Counted from the stretch's first letter, positions 5,309-62,398 are shown. The stretch is 64,000 nt of DNA from Candidatus Aenigmatarchaeota archaeon (GCA_963726265.1 CAVSBQ010000002.1:262486-326485), one strand, 5' to 3'. The notes: generated from the letters alone by a model not told the origin. A program made the numbers and translations.

Positions 5309-5640
5309 GCGTCCACCTCCTTTTGAAGATTTTCGAGTATTATTTCCCCGATTTTCGTGATTTTCAACGGCTTCCCGCGGCCGTTCTCCACGAGCCCCAG
5401 CTCCTTGAGGCTGTTGACGTTCATCCACACCGTCGATTTCGGGCAGCCCATGGCGCAGGAAATCTCATCCACCGCCGAAGTAATCGTCCTCGAGCCGTCC
5501 TGTTCTGCCAGCATTCTGAGTATCTCCATCTTCCTGCCCCTGAGCACTTTGCCAGAAAGCATGACCACCGCGTTGAGAACCTCGTTCACGCTTACTGCGC
5601 CAGAATCCTCTTTCAGCCCGGAGAGATAGTTGAAAATCAT
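5305..5640 (-). CDS. Winged-helix (ArsR/MarR/TrmB-like) transcriptional regulator
   Basis: SAVDEISCAMGCPKSTVWMNVNSLKELGLVENGRGKPLKIT has an HTH-plus-wing pattern. 111 aa. Confidence 0.7.
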   Translation of the reverse strand: MIFNYLSGLKEDSGAVSVNEVLNAVVMLSGKVLRGRKMEILRMLAEQDGSRTITSAVDEISCAMGCPKSTVWMNVNSLKELGLVENGRGKPLKITKIGEIILENLQKEVDA

Positions 5641-5657
5641 CCCAAAAACCCTTTTTT

Positions 5658-5674
5658 CCTGAAGTTGCTTCAGG
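5658..5674. promoter_or_regulatory. Perfect 7-3-7 palindrome CCTGAAG-TTG-CTTCAGG upstream of the wHTH gene (operator candidate)
   Basis: Read directly from the sequence; lies 18-34 nt upstream of the ATG at 5640. Confidence 0.3.
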
Positions 5675-5926
5675 TTATGTCTCAGAAATGGGATGAAGTT
5701 TTAGAGCCTGATCCAAAACTTCATCAAACGATAGAACATGCCGGCGATGCCGTGGGCTGAAAGAAACGACAGTTCGCTTCCGGACATCGCTGCGTTTTGC
5801 ATGAGTATAAATATGAGGCTCAATTCTTATAAACCTTGTGTGCAGGATTTTCTGGAGTCTACGCTGCGCCCGCTTCGCCCGGCCGCCCGGCAAAGGATAT
5901 TTAACGGCCAAAACGAATTATAAAAC

Positions 5927-6616
5927 ATGAAAAAAAGGCCTCGCAGGAAGAAACCAAGGAAAACGAAGAAAGGGCAGGAAAACGAGCTGCGGGACATCTT
6001 CATAGAAAGCCTTTCTTTCAAGGAGCTCGTCACCTCCGCGATAGAGGTCTACAACAGGGAGACCAACGGCGTGCTGCTGGGACGGAGGACTTTCAAGGAG
6101 ATAAAGGGGGAGAAGAAGAAAGTAATCTCGATAAAGAACGTCTACCCGTTCCAGATGGAGAGGCGCACGCCCTCCGAAGTGACGCATGGCAACATAGCCG
6201 CTTTCAAGAGGGTTTTGCGCACGATCGACTCCTTCGACGCGGAGATCGTCGGCGGCTACCATTCGCACACGCCGCCGTACGACGTCGTCCGCCTTTCGCG
6301 CGGCGACATAAAATCGATAAAGGAAGACATCGAAGCGATGCTCAAGATAGGCCACAGGAGGCTCGCGAAGGGCTGGGTGGAAATCCTGCTGTCGATAAAG
6401 AGGAAGAAATACGTGAAGCCCAGCGGCAGGGAGTGGTATATCTGCGACTACATCAAGAAGCTACGCTGCTATCTCAGGACGCAGAAAAGGGTGGGTTGGG
6501 ACATCCTCCTGTCAGCCTACTGGGTGTATCCCAAAAAGGCAATAGAAGGCACCAGCACCAGAAAAACCGAGTTCGGCGTAAAGGAAGTCGCAGTCTACGT
6601 CGAGTGGATTCTATAG
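5927..6616 (+). CDS. JAB/MPN (JAMM) domain metalloprotease-like protein with a very basic N-terminus
   Basis: ETNGVLLG (conserved Glu) followed by GGYHSHTPPYDVVRLSRGD. This fits the H-S-H ... S-x-x-D pattern but with 9 rather than 7 intervening residues. N-terminus is MKKRPRRKKPRKTKKG. Confidence 0.6.
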   Translation: MKKRPRRKKPRKTKKGQENELRDIFIESLSFKELVTSAIEVYNRETNGVLLGRRTFKEIKGEKKKVISIKNVYPFQMERRTPSEVTHGNIAAFKRVLRTIDSFDAEIVGGYHSHTPPYDVVRLSRGDIKSIKEDIEAMLKIGHRRLAKGWVEILLSIKRKKYVKPSGREWYICDYIKKLRCYLRTQKRVGWDILLSAYWVYPKKAIEGTSTRKTEFGVKEVAVYVEWIL

Positions 6617-6885
6617 TGGCGAAACGGGTCCGGCCTTATTTTTAGCAGAAACGGCAAGTTCCAGAAATAATCGCATTTTTCCGGAGGTTTTTTTATTGTG
6701 TTGTAATGGCGCGTGGCACCTATCATCCCGCTTTTTTTGTCTTCAGTTGGCAGTTTTTCTGCCGCGCGGCTACTGAAACAGCACTGCTCACTTTCAGGGC
6801 TCAGAGACCCGTAAATGCATTTCGAGCAGTAGGGTTGTTCGTTTCTGAATAAACCGTATTGCCGCAGAAGGCTCTTCAGGCTCAT
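6595..6885 (-). CDS. Possible small Cys-containing hypothetical protein
   Basis: Only ORF in a 314-bp gap. A TTAAAAAG TATA-like element lies about 25-30 nt upstream. It overlaps the 3' end of the convergent JAB gene. No recognisable family. Confidence 0.3.
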   Translation of the reverse strand: MSLKSLLRQYGLFRNEQPYCSKCIYGSLSPESEQCCFSSRAAEKLPTEDKKSGMIGATRHYNTIKKPPEKCDYFWNLPFLLKIRPDPFRHYRIHST

Positions 6886-6930: not shown

Positions 6931-8013
6931 TCAGCGCGTGACTTCGAGACTGTTCACTCTTTCAAGAAGTTCTCTCGCCTTCGCATCTTTCTCGAAATGG
7001 CGCCTGACCGGCTCAAGCAGCCCGTTCAAGTGGAAGGCGGCCGCCTTCTTCAGGTCTGCCGGATGTATCTTGCCGTCCGCATACGCCTTCTCCAGCTCAC
7101 TGTATTTCTCGAAGCTCAGGTTGCCGCCGAACTTGGCCGGCCTTTCGATTTCGAAGGCCCTGAACTTGCCGGATTCGAAGATTATGAACCTGCAGTATTC
7201 CATGACGGGGTTCTCCTCCGCCTGTTTTTCGGGGCAGTAGGCTTTCGTTATTTTCCGTTCGACTTCCGCAGGCGGGTCGGTCATGAATATCGCGGAATCC
7301 GGCTTCGACTTCGACATCTTCATGTCTATCGTCCTCTCCAGTTTGTCCTTCTCGCTGCTCGCCGGCTTGAGCAGCCCCATGAGCATGTGGTGCGAGACGA
7401 CGACGGGTTTCCAGTAGCCGAGCTTCGGCCCTATCTCGCGCGCGAGCATGTTGACCTTCCTCTGATCCATGCCGAGCTGGCAGATGTCCGCCTTCAGCTG
7501 GAATATGTCCGCTGCCTGCATACATGGATAAAGGACCTGTGACGCCTGCTGCACCTCGCTCTCCTTCCTGCCCATTATCTGGCCGCAGCGGATTATGCGG
7601 TTCACCGTGGCGTTGCGCGAAACCTGCATGACCTTCTTCCAATAATCATCGTCCTTCACGAGCTCGGACGCCCATACGAATTCGACATTCCCTACGTCGA
7701 GCCCGCAGGCCTTCCAGACCTCGATCAAATATTTGCCCACGGTCTGTATGTTCTCCAGGTTGCCGCCCATCTTGTTGTTGGCCCAGCCGTGCCAGTCCGC
7801 GACCAGCATCTTGAAGCGACAACCAGCGAGAATCATCTTGTTTATGTTTATCGCGCGGAGCAAACCCTGGGCTATGTGGACCTTGCCGCTCGGCTCGAAG
7901 CCGTCATACGCTATCGGTTGCGAATTCTTTTCGAGCAGCTCGCGCAGCTCCTGCTGGGTCACGATCTCCTCGCCTACGCGCGAAACCAGTTCGATTCTTT
8001 TTTCGAGGTTCAT
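6931..8013 (-). CDS. tyrS: Tyrosyl-tRNA synthetase
   Basis: HIGH-region EPSGKVHIAQG and KMSKSKP motif. Archaeal/eukaryal TyrRS-like sequence, 360 aa. Confidence 0.9.
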   Translation of the reverse strand: MNLEKRIELVSRVGEEIVTQQELRELLEKNSQPIAYDGFEPSGKVHIAQGLLRAININKMILAGCRFKMLVADWHGWANNKMGGNLENIQTVGKYLIEVWKACGLDVGNVEFVWASELVKDDDYWKKVMQVSRNATVNRIIRCGQIMGRKESEVQQASQVLYPCMQAADIFQLKADICQLGMDQRKVNMLAREIGPKLGYWKPVVVSHHMLMGLLKPASSEKDKLERTIDMKMSKSKPDSAIFMTDPPAEVERKITKAYCPEKQAEENPVMEYCRFIIFESGKFRAFEIERPAKFGGNLSFEKYSELEKAYADGKIHPADLKKAAAFHLNGLLEPVRRHFEKDAKARELLERVNSLEVTR

Positions 8014-11396: not shown

Positions 11397-11916
11397 AGAA
11401 TTTCTCAAGTGCTTCGAGCGACGTTCCGAGACCTTCAAGATAATGCTGAAGCCACCATATATCTGCTTCTCTCAGCGCACCATCGCGGAAGTCTATTGCT
11501 AATTCTGCACTACGGAGAAGTTTGTCAGCATGCATTTCACCTGCGGCCATTATGTGAGGTCTGATATAAGGTGGAGGCTCTAGCGCTGGGTAATACTTTA
11601 GCACTAATCCCTCGAATGCCTCTCCTGCGAGCTCTTCCACAAAATCTCTGGTCTTTGCAAAATATTCTAATTGTTGCAGGGTGGGTTTTTCCCGCAAAAT
11701 CCTGAAAAACATATCTCTAGCTGGTCTTCCGGTGGCTGCCATAATTCTTTGCACATAAATCTTGTTATCTGGACTTTCTATTTCCGCCATGCTTCTTTTA
11801 TGTTCGATGATGTCATACACATCGCTACAAAGATTTTTAAAAGGCAATATTTCTACCGGGCTACCAATGCATTTCTCCAATATTCCGCAATCTGGACAGT
11901 ACTCAGGATGTATCAT
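11383..11916 (-). CDS. Hypothetical protein (177 aa), AT-richer than neighbours
   Basis: Clean ORF with an ATG. Convergent 14-nt overlap with the nuclease gene. No recognised motif apart from an N-terminal CPDC. Confidence 0.5.
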   Translation of the reverse strand: MIHPEYCPDCGILEKCIGSPVEILPFKNLCSDVYDIIEHKRSMAEIESPDNKIYVQRIMAATGRPARDMFFRILREKPTLQQLEYFAKTRDFVEELAGEAFEGLVLKYYPALEPPPYIRPHIMAAGEMHADKLLRSAELAIDFRDGALREADIWWLQHYLEGLGTSLEALEKFFSQP

Positions 11917-12047
11917 GAAATCACATTAAAGTCTGTTATTTGTAACTATTTTAAAGTAGTTATTTTTATGCCTTAAAAAGCTTTGCGCGGGCCGGATTTG
12001 CACACAGAACACCATTATTCTTTAATTGACTGAATGTAATAATAATC

Positions 12048-15701: not shown

Positions 15702-15727
15702 AGAATCATCACTTGATTTAATCTTAG

Positions 15728-15837
15728 TGGACTCGTCGGGAGTTTCAAACGGACGCAGATGAAATCTGCGTCTTGCGCCTTTGAACCCGAGGCCTCTCGG
15801 ATGCGAGCCGAGCGCTCTACCACTGAGCTACGAGCCC
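15728..15837 (-). tRNA. tRNA-Ala(CGC) with a 38-nt intron in the T-loop
   Basis: Minus strand: acceptor GGGCTCG/CGAGTCC with G3:U70; D-arm GCTCAGTGGTAGAGC; anticodon arm CTCGG-CTCGCAT-CCGAG. The T-stem TCGGG/CCCGA encloses 45 nt instead of 7. 72 nt after intron removal. CCA is not encoded. Confidence 0.85.
15742..15779 (-). other. Putative tRNA-Ala intron at about position 59/60
   Basis: Removal restores T-loop TTCAAAT. The intron has a perfect 9-bp hairpin GACGCAGAT-TTC-ATCTGCGTC and a TTTGAA segment complementary to exon TTCAAA. Confidence 0.65.
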
Positions 15838-16246: not shown

Positions 16247-16294
16247 TTCTCCCCAGCCAACCCTATTTTAATCACCTCTGTAAAATATTTTCTT

Positions 16295-16831
16295 ATGATT
16301 GACCTTTACACGTTCGTCGAGGCCGTCTGGCTCATCTGGCCGGCGTACGGGGCGAATGGCCTATGCATGCTCGCGCGTGGGAAGCGGGCCATCGACGGCG
16401 GCCGCATGTGGCGGGGCAAACAGATTTTCGGGCCTGGAAAGACGTGGGAAGGCCTCGTTCTCGGCGTGGTTGTCGCGACGCTGGTCGCGACGTTCCAGAT
16501 GCTCGTCGCGCCGTTTCTGCCGTGGAATCTTTCGCCCGTCCCGCTTGATATTGTTATCATGACGCCTCTGCTCGGCTTCCTGATGGGCCTAGGCGCGATG
16601 CTCGGGGACATAGGAGGCTCGTTCATCAAAAGGCGGTTTGGCATCGCGAGAGGGAAGCCCGCCCCTCTTCTGGACCAGCTCGACTTCATAATTGGAATGC
16701 TGGTTTTCGCTAGCCTTGTGGTCGCGTTCAAATGGGAATGGGCGGTGATAATGCTGGTGATGACACCGATAATCCATCTGACAGCGAACTTCGTGGCGTA
16801 TCTGCTCAAGCTCAAGAACGTGCCTTACTAA
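16295..16831 (+). CDS. carS: CDP-archaeol synthase
   Basis: WPAYGANG, GPGKTWEG and GSFIKRRFGI..GKPAPLLDQLDF blocks are typical of CarS (DUF46). Multi-TM, 178 aa. Confidence 0.85.
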   Translation: MIDLYTFVEAVWLIWPAYGANGLCMLARGKRAIDGGRMWRGKQIFGPGKTWEGLVLGVVVATLVATFQMLVAPFLPWNLSPVPLDIVIMTPLLGFLMGLGAMLGDIGGSFIKRRFGIARGKPAPLLDQLDFIIGMLVFASLVVAFKWEWAVIMLVMTPIIHLTANFVAYLLKLKNVPY

Positions 16832-16854: not shown

Positions 16855-17349
16855 TTATAACTTTATGTAAAAGCGGCCCAAACAATTTGGAGGAAGAGCT
16901 TTATCTCTATGAACATAACCTATTTCTGAACCGTTAATAGAAGGCCCCTCTATCCACAAATCATCTCCATAAATAGATTTGCCATCAAAACTTCTATCGA
17001 TATGAAGTGATTTGCATAATTCAATGGGACCCAAGTCATCTCCTTTCTTAGATTCTCCTATTATATGAAGTCTGCGTATGAACACGCAGGATGGTTCACC
17101 CTCTTTATCAGTTGATATGTTTAGAAAAACTCCGCCGCGATAAGGCATTATATAAATTTTACCCGGAGGATAAAGGAGTCCTTCCTTGTTCTTGGTTCCT
17201 TTTCCAATTCCATGATAAGGCCATGTTTCGGTGATTATTCCACTCAAAACATTATCTTCGTATAGATTCCTGACCAGAATTCTTCCCATAATATCTCTGG
17301 CAACGTCCTTTGAATTTCGTGCAAAAAACTCCTCATTTAGTTTTTCCAT
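16855..17349 (-). CDS. mpg: AAG/Mpg-family 3-methyladenine (alkylpurine) DNA glycosylase
   Basis: FFARNSKDVARDIMGRILV...GIITETWPYHG...PPGKIYIMPYRGGVFLNIST...SCVFIRRL matches the Mpg family pattern. ATG at 17349 is preceded by GGAG, 4 nt after the upstream stop; an alternative TTG at 17364 would overlap by 11 nt. AT-rich. Confidence 0.8.
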   Translation of the reverse strand: MEKLNEEFFARNSKDVARDIMGRILVRNLYEDNVLSGIITETWPYHGIGKGTKNKEGLLYPPGKIYIMPYRGGVFLNISTDKEGEPSCVFIRRLHIIGESKKGDDLGPIELCKSLHIDRSFDGKSIYGDDLWIEGPSINGSEIGYVHRDKALPPNCLGRFYIKL

Positions 17350-17353
17350 AATA

Positions 17354-19921
17354 TCAGTCTCCAATTTTCTTTACCATGATGCAATGGCTAGTATCTTTAC
17401 GTCGGGTCTTAATTGTCGCCCTTTTCCATCCCAATTCATTTAATTTATACTCCGGTATTTCACCGATACCTCTATAACGTTCCAACAAAGCCAATACCTC
17501 CTGACCATTCTGAGCCATTTTAATTTTGTCAAAAATGTTTTTATTCACATAATCGGTCGTTCTTGCCGTCAATTCTTCATCCAAGCCGGTTTTCGGGTCA
17601 TAAAAAGCGAATTTTTTGCACACCTCTCCATTATCTTCCGCTTCCTGTGCAAATCTTATATCTCTTTTTGTTCTTCTTGGTGTTATGACATGAATATCCT
17701 TCCTGAATGCAAACTGATCTTCATCTAGTTTCTCGGAAGTCGGATACCCAATTTTTTTGCCAACGGCCATATGGACTCTAAAATCGCTTCCTATCGGTTC
17801 TATTGCCTTGACGAATCCTGATAATTCAGGAATCACCTCAAAGCCTAGCATGCCCAAACCTTCATATAATTTTTTCTGAATTTCTGGATCAATCAAACTT
17901 TCAGGGAGTGCCAGAATGTAGTATCCATTCTTTTTCAAAATCCTGTTGGCTTCCCTCACAGCCCCCGTTCTCTCCTCACCAAGAGATAAATAATAAAGGC
18001 CCAGCGAACATAACGCAAGATCGAATTTTTCGCCAATTAACGGAAGTTGATGAATAGAAGCCGCGATACTTGCGCCTTTTTGTTTAGAAAACTCTCTCCC
18101 TTTTCTCAACTGGTGTTCATTTATATCCAAACTTGTTATTGGAGCACCTAAAACATGAGATAAGATGGCTGGTCCCGAAGCCAAGTCTACCTTTTCGATC
18201 AAATTCTCGCCGCTTTGCACGAGTCCTTCAATTATTTTTTTATAAACAGCTGCGGTTTTTCCTGAATATGAACTCTCCCATCCGATGAGGTAATTATCTG
18301 CTATCTCCGTTCCCAATTCGCATCCATCGAGTTTGAGATGTTCCAGATACTGCCTCGCTCCTATTCCATAAAGGTTTGCGTTGTGCAGGCTGATTTTCTG
18401 CTGTGGGCTCAGCCTTCCTGCCTCCTTGGGCGACATTCTTTTTATTATCGATTTTTGCAAATGGGGTGGTTTTGCAGTCATCTGTTTTTCATCCGAAGTC
18501 AGTCTCCTTGTCCCGCCATCCATGACATAGGTTATGATATCTTTTTTGTCCTCTCTCTGCTCCCTTATACCCTCATCAATCGAACCGTATGGATTTAACA
18601 AATACTTGCCAACCAGGCTGAATATCTCAACAGGGTGTATCTGGCCCGGTCTCCACAACCTTTTATTGGCCTGTTCATACTCAGCGTCGGTGAAAGGCTC
18701 ATCCAGATGAATACCGTTTTGTGCAGCTGTCAAATCGGTTCCCAAGCTCATGGCCTGAACCATGCCGATGCAGACCCTCTTTTTGGGATTAGTCTGGAAC
18801 TCTATTCTTCCTTTTTCCCTATCGCTCCATGGCTCACTCTCTTTCCTGTGCAAACTCACGGTTCCGTCTAACCTGACCACACCGGCATCCTTGTATCTAT
18901 CCTCCAACACTTCTGTAACGCCGTCCCTGAAATGGGAGCTGAATATGACAACCTTTTCGCCTTTGCTCAGCTCCCTTTCGACTATTTTGTCCAAGGCATC
19001 GTATTTTGCCGAGGGAACAGTTTCTAAAATTTTTCTGAGGCCTTCATCATTTATGCAAGCGGGGTCTACCAAAGCTGGATTTATAAGAGCCTTCTCTAAC
19101 TCCATAAGCTTTCTGAACGCATTAAGGTCTTTGCGTTGATATATTTCCGTATAAATTCTTTCTTGATCAGCATTGAGAACCACCGGTATTATGTGATGCG
19201 TGATGGGCGGCAAATTGATAACATCCTCTGTTTCCCTTCTCAGCATTTTTCCGCCAGGCCCGCTCAGCATCCAGCAAAGAACTGTTGGGTCCTTTCCATA
19301 AGCTTTGTCAACATCCTCGGCTGTCGGGAATTTGTCCGGATAGAGCATGCTCACCAAGGTAAATGCATCATCTATCGTATTGGGTATAGGAGTTCCAGAA
19401 AGCAGCGCTAAATATCTAACGTTATCGGCAAGTTCTTTTATCGCTTTGGTGCGGGAAGCGAGGGGATTCCTGGAGATGTGGATTTCGTCCCCTATCAAAA
19501 AATCGAATCCTATTTCCTTTAATCTTGACACGGTATCTCTGTTGGTCTGTATTTTTTCGCCATGGAGGTCATAGAGGAGCTCATAGTTTATCAGAGTGAA
19601 ATCGGAATCCTTCGCCCTTTTCAAGTCTTTCTCGATGGTATCAGCATATACCGGCACTATTTTTTGCGGCGTTTTGAAATATTTTGCCAGCTCTCTTTGC
19701 CAGTGTTCCTTTAGAAATGCCGGAGAAACTACCAAAGCCCTTATTTTATTGCCGGTTTTGCTTTCAAATGCGTCTTTCGCAAGCCCTGCAACCGCTGTCT
19801 TGTAAAGGCCCATATCATAAGCCAATAGCGCTCTTTCATTGTCTGTAATGAACTTTACCCCCTCTACCGTGGAGATGTGAGGGAAATCCACGTATTTCGA
19901 TATCAAATTATATTTTCCCAT
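17354..19921 (-). CDS. SNF2-family helicase fused to a C-terminal class-I SAM-dependent methyltransferase domain (855 aa)
   Basis: Helicase motifs: DMGLYKT (variant Walker A), DEIH, LSGTPIPN, and LGTDLTAAQNGIHLDEPFTDAEYEQANKRLWRPGQ. MTase motifs: VDLASGPA (motif I), FDLALCSLGLYY, ILKKNGYYIL. No DPPY/NPPY DNA-MTase motif seen. AT-rich. Confidence 0.8.
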   Translation of the reverse strand: MGKYNLISKYVDFPHISTVEGVKFITDNERALLAYDMGLYKTAVAGLAKDAFESKTGNKIRALVVSPAFLKEHWQRELAKYFKTPQKIVPVYADTIEKDLKRAKDSDFTLINYELLYDLHGEKIQTNRDTVSRLKEIGFDFLIGDEIHISRNPLASRTKAIKELADNVRYLALLSGTPIPNTIDDAFTLVSMLYPDKFPTAEDVDKAYGKDPTVLCWMLSGPGGKMLRRETEDVINLPPITHHIIPVVLNADQERIYTEIYQRKDLNAFRKLMELEKALINPALVDPACINDEGLRKILETVPSAKYDALDKIVERELSKGEKVVIFSSHFRDGVTEVLEDRYKDAGVVRLDGTVSLHRKESEPWSDREKGRIEFQTNPKKRVCIGMVQAMSLGTDLTAAQNGIHLDEPFTDAEYEQANKRLWRPGQIHPVEIFSLVGKYLLNPYGSIDEGIREQREDKKDIITYVMDGGTRRLTSDEKQMTAKPPHLQKSIIKRMSPKEAGRLSPQQKISLHNANLYGIGARQYLEHLKLDGCELGTEIADNYLIGWESSYSGKTAAVYKKIIEGLVQSGENLIEKVDLASGPAILSHVLGAPITSLDINEHQLRKGREFSKQKGASIAASIHQLPLIGEKFDLALCSLGLYYLSLGEERTGAVREANRILKKNGYYILALPESLIDPEIQKKLYEGLGMLGFEVIPELSGFVKAIEPIGSDFRVHMAVGKKIGYPTSEKLDEDQFAFRKDIHVITPRRTKRDIRFAQEAEDNGEVCKKFAFYDPKTGLDEELTARTTDYVNKNIFDKIKMAQNGQEVLALLERYRGIGEIPEYKLNELGWKRATIKTRRKDTSHCIMVKKIGD

Positions 19922-21404
19922 AGTTTTTCCCGCCTTTATATTCAGGATTCGGAATTCGTGAATTCGCGTTTCTGATCAAATCATAATTTTGTATGTCGTT
20001 TAAGTTGTCGTATAATTTGCACCACAATCTTTTGACGAACTCGTTTTGTTCGCTGTCTGCCTTTTGCTTTATCTCCGATACGGTTCTTTCCGGATTATCG
20101 TAAAAATTCCTTCTGACCTGTTTTTCAAGAAGTTTATAGAATTCATGTTCTAGGCGAGGGTCCTGATCAAGGAATTCTGGCGGTATCCGCCTAATATAAT
20201 CTTCTGCCGGGAGATTGGACCTGCCCACCGTTATATCGCCAAGGTATGGCCCCAAGGACCAAACGGAGAATTTGACAGAACCCGGTATCATCCTCGACAC
20301 TATATGGTTGAAAACGTATTCCTTGCTTTCATGGCCGTTTTCTCCGAAAGAAGAAAGGATGGCGCTAATGGTTTCTCTCAGTCTTTCATCACTTTTGATA
20401 TAATCTGTGAAATCTTGTGAAGATTCAAATTTTCTGAAAGATCTCTTATATCTTGGATGCAGAACATCCTTTCTTTGAGCAAGTTCTTCTTCTGATAAAC
20501 CCTGTTCTTTGAGAGAAGTATATTTTTGAATTGCCCGCTTCATGATATTTTTTACAGTTGCACCACTCAAACCGGCATATCTGGCAATTTTTTCGAAGTT
20601 ATCGGTTGTTGTATATAGTTTTTCCAGAACAATATCAACTTGTTCTTGAAGAATACCTCCTCCTAGCCTTCGATATTTTGGATTTAGTTTTCCTTCTTCT
20701 ATTAATTGTTCCATAATTCTTCGCACAGCATTAAAATCTAGACCGATATCCTTACTAATTTTTTTGATGTTATCATGTGTAGTCGATAATTTTTCAAAAA
20801 TAATGTCAACCTGTCTTTTAACAATACGTCCTACTCTTAGGTATTGTGAGTCTAGTTTTCCTTCTTCTATCAATTTTTGCATAATTTTTCGAACAGTTGT
20901 ATCATCTAGACTAATATCTTTGCTAATTTTTACTAGGCTATCGTTAGTTGTGGAGAGTTTTTCTAGGATAATGTCAACTTGTTCTTGAACAATACTATTT
21001 GGTAATCTTAAATATTTTGGATGTAATACGTCATTTCTTTTTAGCAGTTCTCCATCGGAAAGACCTTGCTCTTTTAGTAAAAGATATTTTTGTATTGCGT
21101 TGTTCATAATTTTCTTTACAAGTTCATCAGATCTTTCAATATCTTTGCCGATTTTTTTTAAACTATCATGGGTTGTCGAAAGTTTTTCTAAAAGAACACC
21201 AACTTCTTCTGATGTAATATATCTTCGGTGTCTTCGATATTTTGGATCTAATTTTCCTTCTTTTATTGACTGCTCCATTATTTTTTTTAGATAATAGTGA
21301 TTGTATAATGCAACCTCTCTGCCAATTTTTGCTAGGCTATCGTTAGTTGTGGAGAGTTTTTCTATCACTTTTTCTTCTATTTTTTTTGATATTCTTTTTG
21401 GCAT
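19908..21404 (-). CDS. Protein with five tandem HTH-like repeats plus a roughly 170-aa C-terminal domain of unknown function
   Basis: EKL(S/Y)TT(N/H/T)D motif recurs at residues 15, 73, 148, 204 and 261, each followed by KI.KDI......V(K/R)(K/R)IM. 14-nt overlap with the downstream helicase gene. Confidence 0.7.
   Translation of the reverse strand: MPKRISKKIEEKVIEKLSTTNDSLAKIGREVALYNHYYLKKIMEQSIKEGKLDPKYRRHRRYITSEEVGVLLEKLSTTHDSLKKIGKDIERSDELVKKIMNNAIQKYLLLKEQGLSDGELLKRNDVLHPKYLRLPNSIVQEQVDIILEKLSTTNDSLVKISKDISLDDTTVRKIMQKLIEEGKLDSQYLRVGRIVKRQVDIIFEKLSTTHDNIKKISKDIGLDFNAVRRIMEQLIEEGKLNPKYRRLGGGILQEQVDIVLEKLYTTTDNFEKIARYAGLSGATVKNIMKRAIQKYTSLKEQGLSEEELAQRKDVLHPRYKRSFRKFESSQDFTDYIKSDERLRETISAILSSFGENGHESKEYVFNHIVSRMIPGSVKFSVWSLGPYLGDITVGRSNLPAEDYIRRIPPEFLDQDPRLEHEFYKLLEKQVRRNFYDNPERTVSEIKQKADSEQNEFVKRLWCKLYDNLNDIQNYDLIRNANSRIPNPEYKGGKNYGKI
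20439..21392 (-). repeat. Intragenic tandem repeats (5 units of about 56-75 codons) encoding the HTH-like modules
   Basis: Includes a 41-nt DNA repeat with a single mismatch (aattttt[a/g]ctaggctatcgttagttgtggagagtttttcta) at 20925-20965 and 21324-21364. Confidence 0.8.
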
Positions 21405-21590
21405 TTGTTCACCAAATTAACTACTATTTAATGATTATTAGAAAGGTTTATAAATCACTAGAATCCGGCAATTTGGACTATTTAGAGTTTCGTATCAAGG
21501 TTATCGCTCCATGTCGAATTAACCTGCATACAATCTGGGGAATCTGGGAAAATCTTTTTTATGCAACTCCACCTATTAGTATTGTTCTAT

Positions 21591-22193
21591 ATGCATGGCA
21601 AGTTCATCGTCTTCGAGGGGATTGACAAGTCGGGCAAGGCTACGCAGGCGAAGCTGCTGTGCGAACACCTACACGCGAAAGGCGCGCACGTGGTTTACAC
21701 GGCAGAGCCGAGCCCGAACAACCCGGCCGGAAGGCTGATAAAGGACTGGCTGGCCGGCAGGTTAGAAATGACGAGCGGCGAGGCGATAACGCTGCTCTAC
21801 ACGGCCGATCGCTTCGAACATCTGAAGAGGGTGATACTGCCCAACATCGCGGAGGGCAGGAATGTCGTGTGCGACCGCTACTTCTACTCGACCATTGCAT
21901 ACGAATCGGCGATTTTCAACATTGATGCGGCATGGATAAAGAAGCTGCACGAGAACGTGCGCAAGCCTGATCTCGTGATTTACATCGACATAGCGCCCGA
22001 TGTCTCGCTGGCGCGAAAGCGCAGTCGACCAGACGACCGCCTCGAGAAGGTCGAGCTGCTGCGCAAGGTGAGGGATGCATATCACAGGATGGCGAAGGAC
22101 GAGGGCTTCTTTGTCGTGGACGGCGACCGGACGAAGGACGAGGTGTTTGCAGACGTGAAGAAAATCTGCGAGAGGTTTCTGGAAATCAGATAA
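21591..22193 (+). CDS. tmk: Thymidylate kinase
   Basis: P-loop FIVFEGIDKSGKATQ plus the DRY motif. ATG at 21591 with a TATA-like CTTTTTTATG about 30 nt upstream. Confidence 0.85.
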   Translation: MHGKFIVFEGIDKSGKATQAKLLCEHLHAKGAHVVYTAEPSPNNPAGRLIKDWLAGRLEMTSGEAITLLYTADRFEHLKRVILPNIAEGRNVVCDRYFYSTIAYESAIFNIDAAWIKKLHENVRKPDLVIYIDIAPDVSLARKRSRPDDRLEKVELLRKVRDAYHRMAKDEGFFVVDGDRTKDEVFADVKKICERFLEIR

Positions 22194-22241
22194 CAATGAC
22201 AACAATGAAGAGATTTATAAAACCAAAAATGATATTAATAT

Positions 22242-23357
22242 ATGGGCCACCAGATTAGAGCACCGAAAGGCAATAACGCCGTCAACGGTGGCAACGACAG
22301 CAACGGCAAGGACAAGTATGAAGGCCGCGGCTTCTGCGCAGCGCTTTACAAGCAGGGCAGGACCAAGCGCATGGAATCCAGCAACGTCAAAGACTTCTTC
22401 CCCATGATTTCGAAGGCGACGGTTGCATGGATAGATTACGTCGTGAACGACTTTGAAGACGAAAGCCTGGAGGCCGCCACGTCGCTGGGCTTCAGCAAGC
22501 TTCTCGTCAAAAACATGATAAAATGCACCGCCAGCGGCTACGAAGATTTCGTCAACGAGGTCGGCGTGTTCCTGCCGGCGATGCGCGTCGACGGCTTCGA
22601 GGTGAGCCTGGATCCGCTGCTCATATTCATAAAGAAAAACGTCATGGTCACCATACACTCCAAGGAGACCAAAAGATTCTTCCGAGTGAGGCGATACGCA
22701 GAAACGCTCCTGCGCAAGCTGCCGCGCAAAACCCTGCAGACGGACAAGATGACCCTCCTTCTCATGCGCATCATCGACGAGAACAACGCGCGCAACTTCG
22801 ACCACCTGAGGGAAATCGAGGAGCAGGGCGACAAGATGAGCGAGGACCTTTCGGACCCCAAAACGCCGAGGCAGATACTTGGCCCGAAGATTCACCAGAT
22901 GAAGCACGCGCTCATAGTCTACCTGGGCGGGCTGTGGTCGACCGTGGACACGCTGAACTCGCTGCGCTACGGCGACGCGGACCTGCTCACGGACAATACG
23001 AGGATACTGGACAGGCTCGGCGGCCTGGTCGGCGAGGTCCATTCCCAGATCGGCCTGGCGGAGCACCTCAGCGAGGTCCTGGCGAGCGGCCTGGAAGTCC
23101 TGCAGTCGATTTACAATAACCAGCTCCAGATCCTGAACAACAGGCTCGCGCTGCTCGTTTCTTACCTGACCATCATCGGTACCGCGCTGCTCGTGCCGAA
23201 CACCATAGCGACGGTCGCCGGCAACTCCATGTTCAATTTCACAAAAGACGACGTGGGCTGGTATCTCACGCTCATAGTCGTTTCGACCGTTGTCGCGACC
23301 GCATTTTCCTGGTGGGCGCTGAAGAAGGTGCACCTGCTGCCCAGCAAGCCCGAATGA
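22242..23357 (+). CDS. corA: CorA-like divalent cation transporter with a non-canonical pore motif
   Basis: Soluble N-domain plus two C-terminal TM helices. GNSMFNF occupies the position of the YGMNF signature. ATTTATAAAA box about 25 nt upstream of the ATG at 22242; alternative ATG at 22371. Confidence 0.7.
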   Translation: MGHQIRAPKGNNAVNGGNDSNGKDKYEGRGFCAALYKQGRTKRMESSNVKDFFPMISKATVAWIDYVVNDFEDESLEAATSLGFSKLLVKNMIKCTASGYEDFVNEVGVFLPAMRVDGFEVSLDPLLIFIKKNVMVTIHSKETKRFFRVRRYAETLLRKLPRKTLQTDKMTLLLMRIIDENNARNFDHLREIEEQGDKMSEDLSDPKTPRQILGPKIHQMKHALIVYLGGLWSTVDTLNSLRYGDADLLTDNTRILDRLGGLVGEVHSQIGLAEHLSEVLASGLEVLQSIYNNQLQILNNRLALLVSYLTIIGTALLVPNTIATVAGNSMFNFTKDDVGWYLTLIVVSTVVATAFSWWALKKVHLLPSKPE

Positions 23358-23399
23358 GACGAACGACGAACATGGGAATGCAACCAATAAATACAACCC

Positions 23400-32473: not shown

Positions 32474-33055
32474 TCAATCATTCTCCAAAAGCTTTATTGT
32501 ATGATTCAGCAGAGTTTTGTATGTCTGGACCTTATTCCTGATAGTTTTTTTGATTTCAGGAAAGAAAATCTTTTTCTCCATGTCCCTGTCAATTTTTTCA
32601 GAAATCCATTCAAAAGTTTCCTTTAGCCCAATATCGTTTCTCTTTGCAATCCAAGGTAAAATGAGAAACCTATCTATATGCCCCAGAGCGTCGGCTGTGG
32701 CGAGTATCTTCGCTTCCAGACTCTTAGGGAGATACCCGTCTCTGCACCGATGTGAAATTATCGCATTGGAAACCTTTTTTATCATGTCTTCCGGATAACC
32801 CATCTTTCTCATTATCCTTTCAGCTTCCATCGCCCCCGTAATATGGTGGTCCTCGTTTCCGTGGCTCTCTATTGTGTTGTCATGAAGCCAAGCAGCTATT
32901 TCGACGACCTCTTTGTTCGCCCCGAATTTCCTGGCCATATCAAGCGAATATTTCACAACGGGTTTTACATGAAACCTGAAAAAAAGTTTCGAAAGCTCAT
33001 CATATTTTTTTGAATTCTCCAGAGCAATTTTCTTGATTTCTTCGATTCTATTCAT
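32474..33055 (-). CDS. HD-domain hydrolase (193 aa), AT-rich
   Basis: WLHD motif with flanking His residues and a distal ATADALGH. Its stop codon directly abuts the gatE ATG. Confidence 0.7.
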   Translation of the reverse strand: MNRIEEIKKIALENSKKYDELSKLFFRFHVKPVVKYSLDMARKFGANKEVVEIAAWLHDNTIESHGNEDHHITGAMEAERIMRKMGYPEDMIKKVSNAIISHRCRDGYLPKSLEAKILATADALGHIDRFLILPWIAKRNDIGLKETFEWISEKIDRDMEKKIFFPEIKKTIRNKVQTYKTLLNHTIKLLEND

Positions 33056-33076
33056 TCAATCCCTCTGCAGATATTC

Positions 33077-33634
33077 TTAGCGGACATCCTTGATGCTCCT
33101 CAGGACTTTGAGATAAATCTTTTCAAGCTTCATCTCCTTTACTTTCTTTTCAAGGTATTTTTTGTCCAGCCCCTTTCCCTGCTTAAGCAATACGTATTTC
33201 GCATCAGTCAGATCTTTTTCGCTTCTGAATAGCAGTTTGAATACCACCACATCTTCTGGTGAATTTATCCAGACTTTTTGCCCGTAAAAATTCACTTTCC
33301 TTCTTCTTCTGAACGTTTCCCTGCCGAGTTCCGTGTAAACGCCCTTGACATCAAGCCTGTACGGAGACTTGTCATCAAAAACCGTGAAATGACTTTTCTC
33401 GTCGAGCGCGAGTTTCACGCCGTCCTCGTCAACGGAAAAGTGGTTTTTCTTGAGGAAACCGGCGAATTCGCCGATTCTGCCACCAAGTTGTATGACGATG
33501 TCGATGTCGGCGCTAGTCCTCGGCATCCCATAGTAAGCGACGCTTACGGCTCCGACCAGCATGTACGGGATTTTTTTCTCGTTCAGAAACCTCGTGACAA
33601 TCCTTATGATTTCATCGTATCCTCTCATGTGCAT
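33077..33634 (-). CDS. Minimal nucleotidyltransferase-fold protein (MNT/DUF6036-like)
   Basis: LVGAVSVAYYGMPRTSADIDIVI resembles the G-x-S...D-x-D NTase core of small archaeal/bacterial NTases. AT-rich. Confidence 0.6.
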   Translation of the reverse strand: MHMRGYDEIIRIVTRFLNEKKIPYMLVGAVSVAYYGMPRTSADIDIVIQLGGRIGEFAGFLKKNHFSVDEDGVKLALDEKSHFTVFDDKSPYRLDVKGVYTELGRETFRRRRKVNFYGQKVWINSPEDVVVFKLLFRSEKDLTDAKYVLLKQGKGLDKKYLEKKVKEMKLEKIYLKVLRSIKDVR

Positions 33635-39725: not shown

Positions 39726-41003
39726 CTAAGCCTTTTCACGGCCGAAAAGCCTGCTCTGCTTCGATGCCCCGGCCGTTCCTTTGCTTCGCGCCTCCTGCGC
39801 CTTCAGCAGGAATTTCTCCGCATCCTCCGCCCTGTCTTCGGCCAGCAGCTCGAACAGGCCTTCGAAATGCTTCGGGTCGAGTCCCGCTTTCGTCAGATTC
39901 TCGAGCAGGATTTTCCTGCCCATGTCCTCGACCGAGAGCTTGTGCTCTTCCAGCGTCTTGGTGGGGAGCGCCTTCTCTTCCTTCTCCTTTTTGAAAGAAA
40001 GTATGAGCCTGCTGCCGAATTTCATCTCCACGTCCTTCGCAAGCGTTTCGGCCTTGCCTTTCAGGTCGAGCCTCACTATCGCCTTTTTGTCAGGGTTAGC
40101 CGCGGCGATTTCGTGCAGCTCCTTCTCAAGCGCCTCTTTGTCGTCCGCCCCGAACTGCCTCACATAGACCCTGCGCTGGTTCTCGAGCGGAATCCAGTAG
40201 AAGCGCACGCCGCCCCTGTCTATGAACTTCGTCGCTTTCGGCGGGTCGCTCGCGAGGTCGCGCATTGAAGTCTCGACTATCCAGAAGCCCTTCGGCTCTT
40301 CTGATTCGTCCTTTATCTGGGTGGGCACGAGCGAACCGGTAAGGATGAAAGGTTTGCCCGCATAATCGGCATGCTTCGCCTCGTGTATGTGGCCGTTGAC
40401 ATAGAGGTCGAAGCCCTTCGGCAGCTTGTCCAGGCCGAGCGTATGCTGCGCGTAGAGGAACTCGGCAATCGACTGGTGGAGGACGATGATGTTGAAGCAA
40501 CCGTGCTCTGGCGCAGGATTCCAGTTAGACAGCACGCTTTCCGCATACTGGTCGGGAACGCCCGACATGCCCTGTATGGCGACGCGTTCCCCGTCCTTCT
40601 CGAATATCACGCCGTTGCAGTGCAGGTATGTCAGGAAGCCAGCCTTCTCAAGCGCCTCGACCGGATTCAGAAATCCCTTCGTGCGCCGCTCGTGCGTGCC
40701 GTGTATCGCGACGGTGGGTATGCCCATGAGCGCGATTTCCGAAACCTTGGATATGTCCTTCCCGATGCCCTGCACGAGCTTGAGGCCGCTTTGCTCGAGC
40801 AGCGGGGGAATCATCAGTTCCATCGCCTTCGTCAGCGTCTCGGCGTCGGGGCTCCGCGTATCGAAAATGTCGCCGGCGAAAAGAATCAGGTCGCAGCCCA
40901 GCGTCTTGCCTATCGCTTCCCTGAAGGCATCGAACGGGTCTTCCGCGCGCTCGCTGCCCGCGCCGAAGCCGAAATGGAAATCCGAAAGGATTGCGATTCT
41001 CAT
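39726..41003 (-). CDS. mre11: Mre11/SbcD-family DNA repair metallophosphoesterase
   Basis: Motifs DFHFG, AGDIFD, HGTHE and NGHIHE. 425 aa. Confidence 0.75.
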   Translation of the reverse strand: MRIAILSDFHFGFGAGSERAEDPFDAFREAIGKTLGCDLILFAGDIFDTRSPDAETLTKAMELMIPPLLEQSGLKLVQGIGKDISKVSEIALMGIPTVAIHGTHERRTKGFLNPVEALEKAGFLTYLHCNGVIFEKDGERVAIQGMSGVPDQYAESVLSNWNPAPEHGCFNIIVLHQSIAEFLYAQHTLGLDKLPKGFDLYVNGHIHEAKHADYAGKPFILTGSLVPTQIKDESEEPKGFWIVETSMRDLASDPPKATKFIDRGGVRFYWIPLENQRRVYVRQFGADDKEALEKELHEIAAANPDKKAIVRLDLKGKAETLAKDVEMKFGSRLILSFKKEKEEKALPTKTLEEHKLSVEDMGRKILLENLTKAGLDPKHFEGLFELLAEDRAEDAEKFLLKAQEARSKGTAGASKQSRLFGREKA

Positions 41004-41147
41004 GCTTTCAACCCACTCTCATGGATATAATGGCGAAGGGTAATAAAAATAATCGTATGCAAGAAATCTGTTAAACATGTAACCACCAGAAAGAAGCTAC
41101 AATAATAAAGTATTTAAATCTGTTATTCAAAAGTTATTTGTGATAAC

Positions 41148-41333
41148 ATGAGTGACGACTTTAGAAAGGAATTTAGTGACATGAGTGGAGAAGCGGAACG
41201 AACCAGGAAAAACTATGTTGTTCTAGGCCCATACAACAGTACACCGCCATGGGACGGGCACTTTGCCGATACGGGCGTTAGCCAACGCGCACAATCTACA
41301 AGAGACGTGAAAGGGGCAAACTTATTTATTTAG
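41148..41333 (+). CDS. Possible small hypothetical protein (61 aa)
   Basis: ORF in an AT-rich patch; no recognised domain. Confidence 0.3.
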   Translation: MSDDFRKEFSDMSGEAERTRKNYVVLGPYNSTPPWDGHFADTGVSQRAQSTRDVKGANLFI

Positions 41334-41359
41334 GATTTTTGCCGTATAGGAACGAGTGA

Positions 41360-41791
41360 ATGAACATGAAAGGATACAAAGGATTCAAAGGGCATTTTTT
41401 TGTTTCTGATAAAGGGAATATCGACGCTGTCGTTGAAGCCCTTAACAATGCGTACATTTATGTAATGGGACTTGAACCGCGATACATTGCTACTGGCGGT
41501 AAAATGCATACGAATGATGATGGCTCTAGAAGGCCAGTATACAACAAAGACAGCGGGTGGATTAGCGATGCCGAAGGAACCCAGCTCGCAGTGGTGCATG
41601 AGCCCGGAAATGTCCCGAGGACAACCGCAACTGGCTCCGTGATTGAAAATCCGCGGCTTGTGGAAATATTCGCGACAGGAAGTTTAGACGCCAAATTGAT
41701 AATGACGTTCATCGAAAGGACTATGCTTGAAAAAGGTTTTGAAATTGGCATGAATCCTTCTGAATACCTTTATACAATTGGCGACGCCTGA
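41360..41791 (+). CDS. Hypothetical protein (143 aa)
   Basis: ORF with an ATG in an AT-rich patch between mre11 and purF; no recognised domain. Confidence 0.45.
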   Translation: MNMKGYKGFKGHFFVSDKGNIDAVVEALNNAYIYVMGLEPRYIATGGKMHTNDDGSRRPVYNKDSGWISDAEGTQLAVVHEPGNVPRTTATGSVIENPRLVEIFATGSLDAKLIMTFIERTMLEKGFEIGMNPSEYLYTIGDA

Positions 41792-61196: not shown

Positions 61197-62288
61197 ATGG
61201 CTGAAGATTTCATGGAGATAAACAGCTCCGAAAACCAGAAGGAGAAAAAGGAATTCACCTACGCGAATGCGGGCGTCGACATCGAGAAGGTCAAGCATGC
61301 GCATTCGAGCATGGCAGAGCTTTTCAGGCAGACTTTTTCCAACAGGTTCGACAAGTTCGGCCGCGTGATGAGCGAGATAGGCCATTACGCAGGCATGATA
61401 GACATAGGCGGCGGAAGGCTTCTGGCGATCCACGTCGACGGCGTGGGGACAAAAACGCTGGTTGCCCATGCCATGAGGAAATACGACACCATCGGCATCG
61501 ATTGCGTCGCGATGAACGTGAACGACCTGATATGCATGGGCGCCGAGCCGACGACGCTGGTTGATTACATCGCGCTCGAGAAGACGGACGAGCGCGTGAT
61601 AAGCGAGATAGCGAAGGGCCTCGCGAAGGCGGCGAAGGAAGCGGGCATTGCGATTGTCGGCGGCGAGACCGCGATAATGCCTGACGTCGTAAAGGGCTTT
61701 GACCTGGCAGCGACTTCGCTCGGAGTCGTGTATCGCGACAGGGTAGTCACGGGCGAGAATATGGTGCCAGGCGACATCGTCATAGGGCTCGAGAGCTCCG
61801 GCATTCATTCGAACGGGCTCTCGCTGGCAAGGAAGCTCCTTCTCTCAAGGTTCGACATCGGGACTTATGTAAAAGAACTCGACTGCACCGCCGGCGAGGA
61901 GCTGCTCAAGCCGACGAGGATTTACGTCAAGCCCGTGCTAGAGGTCCTGCAGAACTGCAAGGTCCACGGCCTCGCCCACATAACGGGCGGCGCTTTCTCG
62001 AAGCTCGCGCGCATAGGCAACAAAGCGAACGTGGGCTTCGACATAAAGCTTCCCAAGCCGACGAAGCCAGTCTTCAAAATGCTGCAGAAGTTTGGTACGC
62101 TGAGCGACCGCGAAATGTTCCGCACGTTCAACATGGGAGTCGGCTTCATAATAGTCGTCCCCGGCGAGGAGCCGGAAGACTACGAGCGCGTCGCGGACGT
62201 TCTGAAAAAACATAAAATGCCCCACGCGGTGATAGGCAAGGTCACGCAGGTGCGCAAGATTCTGGTGAACGGCGTGGACGTGGCCTAG
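61197..62288 (+). CDS. purM: AIR synthetase
   Basis: DGVGTK and GGETA motifs. TTAAAAATAT box about 25 nt upstream of the ATG. Confidence 0.9.
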   Translation: MAEDFMEINSSENQKEKKEFTYANAGVDIEKVKHAHSSMAELFRQTFSNRFDKFGRVMSEIGHYAGMIDIGGGRLLAIHVDGVGTKTLVAHAMRKYDTIGIDCVAMNVNDLICMGAEPTTLVDYIALEKTDERVISEIAKGLAKAAKEAGIAIVGGETAIMPDVVKGFDLAATSLGVVYRDRVVTGENMVPGDIVIGLESSGIHSNGLSLARKLLLSRFDIGTYVKELDCTAGEELLKPTRIYVKPVLEVLQNCKVHGLAHITGGAFSKLARIGNKANVGFDIKLPKPTKPVFKMLQKFGTLSDREMFRTFNMGVGFIIVVPGEEPEDYERVADVLKKHKMPHAVIGKVTQVRKILVNGVDVA

Positions 62289-62398
62289 GACAACATTCTT
62301 AGCGGCTTTGCACTAAACTCCTTTCTGATTTTAATGATAATATCTTTTGAATTTTAGGGACAATGAAGATATTTAAAACTTTATGAAAGTGTATTCTT

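Follow-up and report, generated by a model that had tools for sequence, protein, structure and literature searches.

What does a block of three AT-rich genes, chained on one strand between two housekeeping genes, do for an archaeal cell? The question is raised by positions 16855-21404 of a 64,000-nucleotide stretch of DNA from a Candidatus Aenigmatarchaeota archaeon (GCA_963726265.1, CAVSBQ010000002.1:262486-326485). We call this whole stretch the window, and all coordinates are window positions unless another locus is named. The genes code for an adaptor protein with an array of helix-turn-helix (HTH) repeats and a conserved C-terminal domain, here called PCD, for a fusion of an SNF2-type ATPase with an S-adenosylmethionine (SAM) methyltransferase, and for a small protein with the fold of the glycosylase AAG. 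The gene content of related loci shows that the three genes constitute one conserved functional module, and the approximately 4.7-kb island that carries them between carS and tmk was acquired horizontally. That an imported island, a single conserved module, an AAG fold devoid of its catalytic glutamate and a variable adaptor are all present together is a conclusion that we hold with high confidence. As for function, the reading that we favor is a mobile, adaptor-targeted, ATP-driven module that would methylate nucleic-acid bases and whose partner protein would bind or excise methylpurines, and we consider its chances of being correct to be about even.

All three open reading frames of the chained minus-strand block, as proposed in an initial annotation made from the sequence alone, were confirmed. 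A mechanical list of reading frames places the adaptor (498 residues) at 19908-21404 and the fusion (855 residues) at 17354-19921. The same list stretches the AAG-fold gene to a TTG at 17364, and independent gene calls agree on the ATG start at 17349, giving a protein of 164 residues (16855-17349). The 14-nucleotide overlap between adaptor and fusion at 19908-19921 was likewise found in the sequence, and the junction between the fusion and the AAG-fold gene reads TGA-TATT-ATG, with a GGAG located 10-13 nucleotides upstream of the ATG. Upstream of the adaptor, the segment at 21408-21501 is a probable promoter region for the operon, as suggested by its 89-92% identity to the corresponding segments at the related loci L056, L142 and L143. 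This upstream stretch of about 95 nucleotides is conserved although the neighboring DNA that codes for the HTH array cannot be aligned between the same loci, and it contains a TATA-like TTTATAA at 21448-21454, located 44-50 nucleotides upstream of the adaptor ATG.

The wide recurrence of the three genes rules out that they are adjacent by chance. We assembled a set of loci from one genome per species, metagenome contigs and contigs obtained by exact-sequence look-up, which after removal of redundancy at 95% identity comprised 80 loci, including 61 with the short, archaeal-type fusion. An adjacent PCD adaptor gene was present in 40 of these 61, frequently as two or three tandem paralogs, and an Mpg-like gene, corresponding to the AAG-fold gene of the window, was located at most a few genes away in 28. 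Ten other short-form loci contained a gene for a DUF488-N3a protein, and no locus contained both an Mpg-like and a DUF488 gene. Where at least 2.5 kb of sequence was available on both sides (n = 20), an Mpg-like gene was identified in 12 loci, a DUF488 gene in five and neither in three. No other gene family recurred in more than four related loci, and there was no nuclease among the recurring neighbors. Starting in reverse from the Mpg-like protein, a full HMMER scan gave 523 matches, and two informative look-ups of their genomic context returned the SNF2-methyltransferase. The co-occurrence analysis suggested in the initial annotation thus has a clear outcome, in that homologs of the trio co-localize in dozens of DPANN loci.

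The DUF488-N3a proteins (PF22751, 51-55 bits where scanned with Pfam) are small, and one or two of them follow the adaptor in place of the Mpg-like protein at loci L016, L018, L019, L022, L033, L158, L159, L164, L167, L172 and L176. Neither PDB nor NCBIfam provided information about DUF488, and some of the literature matches to this name were false, since they referred to DUF4886.

Relatives of the module were also identified in bacteria, namely in phyla of the candidate phyla radiation (CPR), in contigs labeled as “uncultured Gammaproteobacteria” and in Fermentibacteria, where the parts are joined into single chains of 1,100-1,900 residues. SNF2 and Methyltransf_8/11 domains were present in all tested bacterial long forms except L028, and three of the tested forms (L038, L042 and L141) carry N-terminal arrays of HNH_repeat or HTH modules. 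In L028, PCD is located directly N-terminal to SNF2 in the same chain. As this fusion shows, adaptor and motor function together. Horizontal transfer has clearly carried the module between phyla of DPANN archaea and also into bacteria, and its presence is patchy even among closely related strains.

The fusion protein (17354-19921, minus strand) has about 20 homologs of the same architecture. Residues 1-480 (18482-19921) form an SNF2-type ATPase or translocase, matched by the profiles SNF2-rel_dom (87.4 bits) and, with 30 bits, Helicase_C. Of its motifs, I, II and VI are intact, with K41, D145-E146-x-H148, Q417, R421 and R424 invariant or nearly so among 16 homologs. This part also matches the phage family phrog_62, annotated as “DNA helicase,” with 225 bits, and a weak ResIII match, the only trace of a restriction-type domain, belongs to the ATPase core. 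Residues from about 515 to 745 (17687-18379) form a class I methyltransferase with a score of 43.7 bits to Methyltransf_11 (cut-off 21.2) and a Rossmann fold in the AlphaFold2 model, and in the alignment of 16 homologs the SAM-motif residues D579, G583 and D599 are invariant and P584 is conserved. In combination with the AAG-fold protein, the domain content that had been read from the sequence was upheld by Pfam, since SNF2-rel_dom, Helicase_C, Methyltransf_11 and Pur_DNA_glyco each exceed their cut-off.

Which bases or molecules might such a methyltransferase modify? A regular-expression search for motif IV of the amino-methyltransferases, [DNS]PP[YFWH], found no instance in the 855 residues, which agrees with the earlier statement that a DPPY or NPPY motif is absent, and there was no match to the Pfam family N6_N4_Mtase. 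Instead, for the model of residues 490-855 (mean predicted local distance difference test, pLDDT, 87.3), the best Foldseek match in PDB was nucleomethylin (2ZFU; E 7e-9, TMt 0.76), followed by generic class I methyltransferases and Bud23. The family profile likewise matched 2ZFU with the longest coverage (E 1.7e-11). Furthermore, PF05148, the family of Rrp8 and nucleomethylin, was matched by 15 of 16 family members, and among the bacterial long forms L029 (35.1 bits) and L038 (30.7 bits) exceed the cut-off. The SNF2 helicase-methyltransferase fusion reported initially is therefore confirmed in its domains, whereas the methyltransferase is reassigned as closest to the ribosomal RNA (rRNA) 1-methyladenine (m1A) enzyme Rrp8/nucleomethylin. 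The remainder of the protein, residues 746-855 (17357-17686), is a C-terminal extension modeled as an alpha/beta unit (pLDDT 70-94); it has no match in Pfam, and none of the other 15 members in the family alignment has its final 60 residues or so.

The AAG-fold protein (16855-17349, minus strand) belongs to the Pur_DNA_glyco family (PF02245), which it matches with 63.7 bits (cut-off 27) over residues 12-148. Its best NCBIfam score is 55.4 bits (TIGR00567, cut-off 116), and the equivalog models give 27-54 bits for cut-offs of 182-272. By alignment to human AAG and its E125Q mutant 1EWN, we fixed the position of the catalytic Glu125 of the ETEAY motif, which is Trp43 in the window protein. Glu or Asp occupies this position in none of the 30 non-redundant homologs linked to a fusion gene, which have Gly (21), Trp (3), Ala (3), Gln (2) or Ser (1) instead. 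Of 151 close relatives, 117 have lost the loop with His136; the position of Tyr159 is mostly Arg and that of Tyr162 is variable, while the equivalents of Tyr127, Asn169 and Arg182 are mostly kept. Proteins with a canonical ETEAY motif appeared only among the weaker matches of the global search. The designation as an AAG-type glycosylase has thus been replaced by membership in a subfamily of short AAG-fold proteins that lack both Glu125 and the His136 loop, for which the canonical activity on alkylpurines cannot be assumed. Since the pocket for the flipped base is largely kept and the general base is gone, the protein is predicted to be a reader of methylpurines, or a specialized exciser limited to labile cationic bases. 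The 3-methyladenine DNA glycosylase I of E. coli, TAG, has no catalytic carboxylate and still removes cationic 3-methyladenine (m3A), so that a labile methylpurine might still be excised by a protein without Glu125. Some other Glu-less AAG-fold proteins from the global search (P0202, P0256, P0254 and P0239) have N-terminal extensions of 90-215 residues that by eye resemble the HNH_repeat/HTH modules of the adaptors.

The adaptor consists of two parts with very different histories. Residues 1-310 (20475-21404, minus strand) form a variable array of five HTH-type repeats of about 57 residues, recognized as direct repeats with EKL[SY]TT motifs and matching HTH families in Pfam only weakly, whereas residues from about 311 to 498 (19911-20474) form PCD. 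In homologous adaptors, strong arrays of HTH_23, HTH_28 and HNH_repeat modules were identified in variable number and type, and PCD, with about 170 residues, is the only part kept across loci. Iterative searches with hidden Markov models found PCD in one to three genes abutting the fusion at nearly every archaeal locus. The initial description as a protein with five HTH repeats holds in that the five repeats exist; the conserved part, however, is the novel C-terminal domain, and the repeats are variable and swappable. No relative of PCD was found in Pfam or among PDB sequences, and when a two-sequence model (pLDDT 73.7) was submitted to Foldseek, the best candidate reached only E 0.76 and a TM near 0.2, which does not count as a match. 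A profile search against an index of 5.8 billion proteins returned one protein. From the sequence data we predict that PCD is a docking domain for the fusion protein and that the HTH array is a DNA-targeting module.

Comparison of closely related cassettes shows, at the level of their aligned sequences, that the HTH array has been swapped between near-identical copies. Between the window and L143, the DNA is 96.6% identical from the Mpg-like gene through PCD, and PCD itself is about 97% identical, whereas the N-terminal arrays have no detectable similarity and their coding DNA cannot be aligned. The L056 adaptor has seven repeats of the type in the window, with an array identity of 53%, compared with 85% for PCD and 88% for the fusion. 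Adaptor lengths among the related strains are 462, 498 and 615 residues. Two cassette alleles were present in a single sample, metagenome Ga0315295, represented by L143 and L144; their fusions are 98% and 88% identical to that of the window and their arrays differ (adaptors of 462 and 615 residues).

Is the cassette an import into this genome? Its GC content is 39.7%, compared with 53.3% in the remaining window, and the other segments of 4.55 kb have a mean of 0.538 (standard deviation 0.017, minimum 0.489). Near 16.8 kb and near 21.6 kb, the shift takes place within 200 nucleotides. In tetranucleotide distance, too, the cassette is the greatest outlier of the whole window. The earlier remark, made by eye, on its AT-richness relative to the flanks is borne out. 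On the left, it is flanked by carS for CDP-archaeol synthase (16295-16831, plus strand; Pfam CarS-like, 154 bits), which has a GC content of 0.54-0.61 and is 88-93% identical to carS of the sister strains L055 and L056. On the right, it is flanked by tmk for thymidylate kinase (21561-22193, plus strand; Thymidylate_kin, 149 bits), which more probably begins at the ATG at 21591. Both are housekeeping genes of the host. In L055 the site is empty, with carS (88% identical to that of the window) followed by 28 nucleotides and then tmk. In L056 the order is carS, the three cassette genes, an extra gene for 190 residues and tmk. The 3' end of carS, which in the window represents the left, att-like copy of a repeat (16802-16827, plus strand), recurs beyond the cassette in L056, where a direct repeat with 24 of 26 nucleotides matching (1857-1883 and 6933-6959 of that locus) brackets the three genes. 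In the window, there is no intact second copy with three mismatches or fewer, and a degenerate remnant at 21502-21535 resembles 16799-16830 weakly and with gaps; in alignment it corresponds to the right copy that is intact in L056. The window differs from L056 in its degenerate right repeat and in the missing extra gene. Accordingly, the earlier statement that there is no flanking direct repeat is correct for an intact repeat in the window, although one is present in the sister strain.

The nearest homologs of the fusion outside the species are in the L002 contig (52% identity) and in a Nanohaloarchaeon (48%), whereas two copies from Aenigmatarchaeota are only 29-34% identical to that of the window. 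In low-GC DPANN genomes, moreover, the module has the GC content of its flanks, which we count in favor of an import here. Taken together, the empty site, the att-like repeat, the odd GC content and the distant nearest homologs demonstrate that the island was imported, as the initial annotation had supposed from composition, and its entry was probably by site-specific integration. An assembly chimera is ruled out by the recurrence of the junctions in independent assemblies, the left one in L001, L056 and L057 and that on the tmk side in L056, L142 and L143.

How might the parts work together? Under our favored reading, the HTH array of the adaptor would select the DNA, and PCD would dock on the fusion protein and recruit the translocase. 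ATP-driven translocation along double-stranded DNA, or its unwinding, by the SNF2 motor could then expose bases, on which the Rrp8-like methyltransferase may install an N-methylpurine as its relatives do, such as m1A or a mark similar to 7-methylguanine (m7G) or m3A. The AAG-fold protein would flip out and bind the methylpurine or, alternatively, excise it without a general base in the manner of TAG, and in other lineages the DUF488 protein may fill its place. We infer the DNA substrate, the nature of the mark, the role as reader or exciser and a role in genetic conflict, which might be the exclusion of foreign DNA or the maintenance of the element. A role in conflict or specificity is favored because of the mobility of the module, its patchy distribution, the paralogy of the adaptors and the wholesale swapping of arrays.

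Several observations weigh against this interpretation. The closest characterized relatives of the methyltransferase act on rRNA, in which Rrp8/nucleomethylin makes m1A and Bud23 makes m7G, the domain of the window protein scores below the cut-off of PF05148 (18.8-21.7 bits for a cut-off of 27), and enzymes of the Methyltransf_11 type also modify proteins and small molecules. The module contains neither a nuclease nor any other effector, so that a defense outcome would have no obvious executor. PADLOC detected generic SNF2 similarity only, with nothing above threshold, and left the Mpg-like protein unmatched. No integrase or recombinase was identified in the island of the window, in agreement with the initial annotation, nor in L056, L142 or L143, and the fusion had no match in IMG/VR, GenBank phages or PLSDB plasmids; the relatives found in IMG/VR consist of the SNF2 part only, and the methyltransferase half was unmatched in GenBank phages and PLSDB. 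Furthermore, whereas the GC content of the module is 13 points below that of the flanks in the window lineage, in low-GC DPANN genomes the module often resides amid housekeeping genes with native composition (module and flank GC of 0.352 and 0.353 in L002 and of 0.293 and 0.296 in L008), which would fit a cellular role outside genetic conflict. Finally, the docking by PCD is deduced from gene fusion and adjacency only, and the structural model is of moderate confidence (pLDDT 73.7).

Because of the native composition in many DPANN genomes and the missing nuclease, a regulatory role is an alternative, which we regard as rather unlikely. In such a regulator of chromatin or transcription, the HTH adaptors would direct an SNF2 remodeler to selected sites, the methyltransferase would mark DNA or a chromatin protein such as a histone, Alba or HU, and the AAG-fold or DUF488 protein would be an auxiliary DNA binder. 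The native composition in low-GC DPANN genomes, where the module is found beside genes for SRP54, ScpA/B and ribosomal proteins, speaks for this view, as does the presence of neither a nuclease nor a toxin, and several adaptor paralogs at one locus could address different sites. Nucleomethylin, the best structural match, is itself a chromatin-associated protein. However, the distribution is patchy, with close strains differing in presence, transfer between DPANN phyla and to bacteria is clear, and the swap of a whole HTH array between cassettes that are 97% identical is commoner in systems for conflict or specificity than in regulators of the housekeeping kind. Another alternative would place the action on RNA rather than DNA, such that rRNA or transfer RNA (tRNA) would receive m1A, or m7G, from the Rrp8-like domain, the SNF2 part remodels ribonucleoprotein or acts co-transcriptionally on RNA polymerase in the manner of RapA, and the AAG-fold protein binds RNA. 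The kinship of the methyltransferase with the rRNA base methyltransferases Rrp8/nucleomethylin and Bud23 and the lack of a DNA-amino-methyltransferase motif are both in line with this idea, the AAG fold has a relative in the C-terminal domain with which formyltransferase binds tRNA, and loss of the catalytic residue of the glycosylase fits a role other than DNA repair. Yet SNF2 ATPases are translocases on double-stranded DNA, the adaptors are arrays of DNA-binding HTH and HNH_repeat modules, the weak similarity to RapA amounts to 32 bits for a cut-off of 576, and an imported, strain-variable module is unlike genes for rRNA modification. We therefore judge a target in RNA to be quite improbable.

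A module without a role in regulation or RNA modification could still serve the element that carries it, or serve repair. If the island is a decayed integrative element that has lost its integrase, a modification-only selfish or exclusion module might shield the DNA of the element by methylation, or mark host DNA against restriction encoded elsewhere. The att-like repeat and the empty site, the degenerate right repeat and lost neighboring gene in the window, the IS110 transposase beside the L002 cassette and the similarity of the SNF2 part to the phage helicase family phrog_62 (225 bits) are what one would expect from such an origin. However, an integrase is absent from all four related strains, the fusion is not in the viral and plasmid collections (IMG/VR, GenBank phages and PLSDB) and no cognate restriction gene is recurrent nearby, which makes this scenario very unlikely in our estimation. 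We assign a still smaller probability to the surveillance and repair of alkylation damage, the alternative raised in the initial annotation, in which the SNF2 motor would scan the DNA and the Mpg homolog remove alkylated purines. The Pur_DNA_glyco fold is indeed present, SNF2 proteins join in repair in other organisms, and a LigD_N phosphoesterase, a repair-type gene, is located nearby. But the empty-site strain L055 has this gene as well, which places it outside the island, Glu125 is missing in all 30 linked homologs and the His136 loop is deleted, presence is strain-variable with horizontal transfer, and a SAM methyltransferase and swappable HTH arrays would be superfluous for repair.

Does the module correspond to a system that is already known? 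The initial annotation had set it apart from DISARM, BREX, Dpd and restriction-modification (R-M) systems of types I and III, and the scores and missing partners bear this out, also for Zorya. We rejected membership in DISARM, Zorya, Dpd and BREX, for which NCBIfam scores were far below the cut-offs (51.7 bits for DrmD with a cut-off of 610, 46 for ZorD with 1500 and 34.5 for DpdE with 500) and the partner genes are absent. Membership in type I or III R-M was dismissed because searches with Pfam, NCBIfam and PADLOC revealed neither a nuclease domain nor a family of specificity subunits. The module shares with DISARM (DrmD and DrmMI), BREX (BrxHI/II and PglX), type I Zorya (ZorD) and Dpd (DpdE) an SNF2-family ATPase beside a nucleic-acid-modifying enzyme, generic helicase similarity, residence on a horizontally mobile island and a patchy distribution. 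Unlike these systems, it is without DrmA/B/C, PglX/Z, ZorA/B/C and DpdA/B/C and without a nuclease or PLD domain, its methyltransferase is fused to the helicase and is Rrp8-like rather than of the N6-adenine or C5-cytosine DNA type, and it adds the multi-HTH adaptor and a Glu-less AAG-fold or DUF488 protein.

By analogy, in its logic the module most resembles type I R-M, although the parts are unrelated. Like the HsdS/HsdM/HsdR complex, it combines a swappable separate specificity subunit, of which several paralogs may be present at one locus, with an ATP-driven translocase and a SAM methyltransferase. In contrast to HsdS with its two target-recognition domains, however, the adaptor consists of HTH repeats and a novel helical domain, the motor is of the SNF2 type rather than an HsdR-type helicase with a nuclease, and there is neither an NPPY motif nor an endonuclease domain.

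For the individual proteins, known relatives are easier to name. The AAG-fold protein shares fold and family (PF02245) with human AAG and bacterial Mpg and mostly retains Tyr127, Asn169 and Arg182. Unlike these enzymes, it has Glu125 replaced (by Trp, and in relatives by Gly, Ala, Gln or Ser), lacks the His136 loop and does not conserve the intercalating Tyr162. It is also about 40 residues shorter, scores below every NCBIfam equivalog cut-off and is always located beside the SNF2-methyltransferase rather than being free-standing. E. coli TAG provides a mechanistic precedent in its lack of a catalytic carboxylate, but it has a helix-hairpin-helix fold and is a stand-alone housekeeping enzyme. 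Rrp8/nucleomethylin (PF05148; 2ZFU) is both the best structural and the longest profile match of the methyltransferase domain, which differs in being fused to SNF2, in being partnered by a DNA-binding adaptor and, in the window protein, in falling under the PF05148 cut-off. A full-text literature search found no description of this module, and we place it as a novel form among the modules that couple modification to a helicase.

A bolder version of our favored reading, which we put forward tentatively, is that the module represents a new class of DNA-modification system of ultra-small episymbionts, the DPANN archaea and CPR bacteria, programmed by exchangeable HTH arrays and installing a lesion-like N-methylpurine (m1A, m3A or m7G) in DNA through an Rrp8-type methyltransferase coupled to the SNF2 translocase. 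Just as tentatively, a pseudo-glycosylase, either the Glu-less AAG fold or DUF488, might read or remove the mark, so that immunity or epigenetic control would be derived from the chemistry of damage. Should the module methylate DNA, the repertoire of DNA modification in prokaryotes would gain a new type of enzyme, an Rrp8-like methyltransferase coupled to SNF2, and perhaps also a new modified base. If the proposed mechanism is true, it would also provide the first role for an AAG fold without its catalytic residue, and nature would offer a case of a modular targeting subunit whose HTH array can be exchanged. Being confined to DPANN archaea and CPR-type bacteria, the module may belong to a biology specific to these little-known episymbionts, with cross-domain transfer evidently linking both groups. 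As a purely genomic result, the study defines a testable three-gene system in which Walker K41, SAM-motif D579 and Trp43 are clear positions for mutants.

The surroundings of the island are those of an ordinary archaeal genome. The genes on the left side code for a metallophosphoesterase, LigD_N and CarS and those on the right side for thymidylate kinase, CorA, NAD kinase and IMPDH, and all ten window genes that we checked with Pfam, including the neighbors of the island, are of housekeeping types. Because the closest named relatives of IMPDH (66-77% identity) are all from Candidatus Aenigmarchaeota, the host is, by this sequence similarity, most likely a DPANN archaeon of the Aenigmatarchaeota. 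The initial annotation had stated that there is no adjoining tRNA, which needs to be amended, since Rfam identifies one at 15782-15837 on the minus strand, about 1 kb from the cassette. Read by eye, it is a tRNA-Ala(CGC) with the G3:U70 identity pair that extends over 15727-15837 and contains an insert of about 37 nucleotides in the T-loop, a non-canonical intron; LigD_N and carS are located between this tRNA and the island. The Rfam match (38.4 bits) covers only the part mentioned above, and ARAGORN reports no tRNA.

The sister strains differ from the window on both sides of the site. Between LigD_N and carS they have a gene for 306-310 residues (494-1414 in L055 and 401-1333 in L056) with a weak match to the LigD primase-polymerase, which is missing from the window, where the two genes are separated by only 48 nucleotides (16247-16294). 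Between the cassette and tmk, an extra gene is present in L056 (6957-7529, minus strand), L142 (4961-5734, plus strand) and L143 (3989-4762, plus strand). The products, of 190 and 257 residues, look like lipoproteins in that the N-terminus is hydrophobic, and they contain a DGDG motif; the versions are 25% identical to each other. They have no match in Pfam or PHROG, and we rejected the idea that they are fragments of an integrase. At the closest foreign copy of the cassette, in L002, the IS110-family transposase is encoded at 5407-6642, about 500 nucleotides downstream.

Elsewhere in the window, further patches of low GC content (0.32-0.44) at 1-1750, 11501-12000, 32501-33500, 41001-41500 and 62251-63250 may represent additional imported segments. 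The last of these contains an open reading frame for 139 residues (62399-62818) with a hydrophobic N-terminal helix and a DNDGDG motif; we considered it as a relative of the extra gene of the sister strains and rejected this, the two being unrelated. Finally, an antisense reading frame at 22215-23396 on the minus strand mirrors CorA (22242-23357, plus strand), and similar pairs are found elsewhere in the GC-rich parts; such long antisense frames opposite real genes are a compositional artefact rather than genes.

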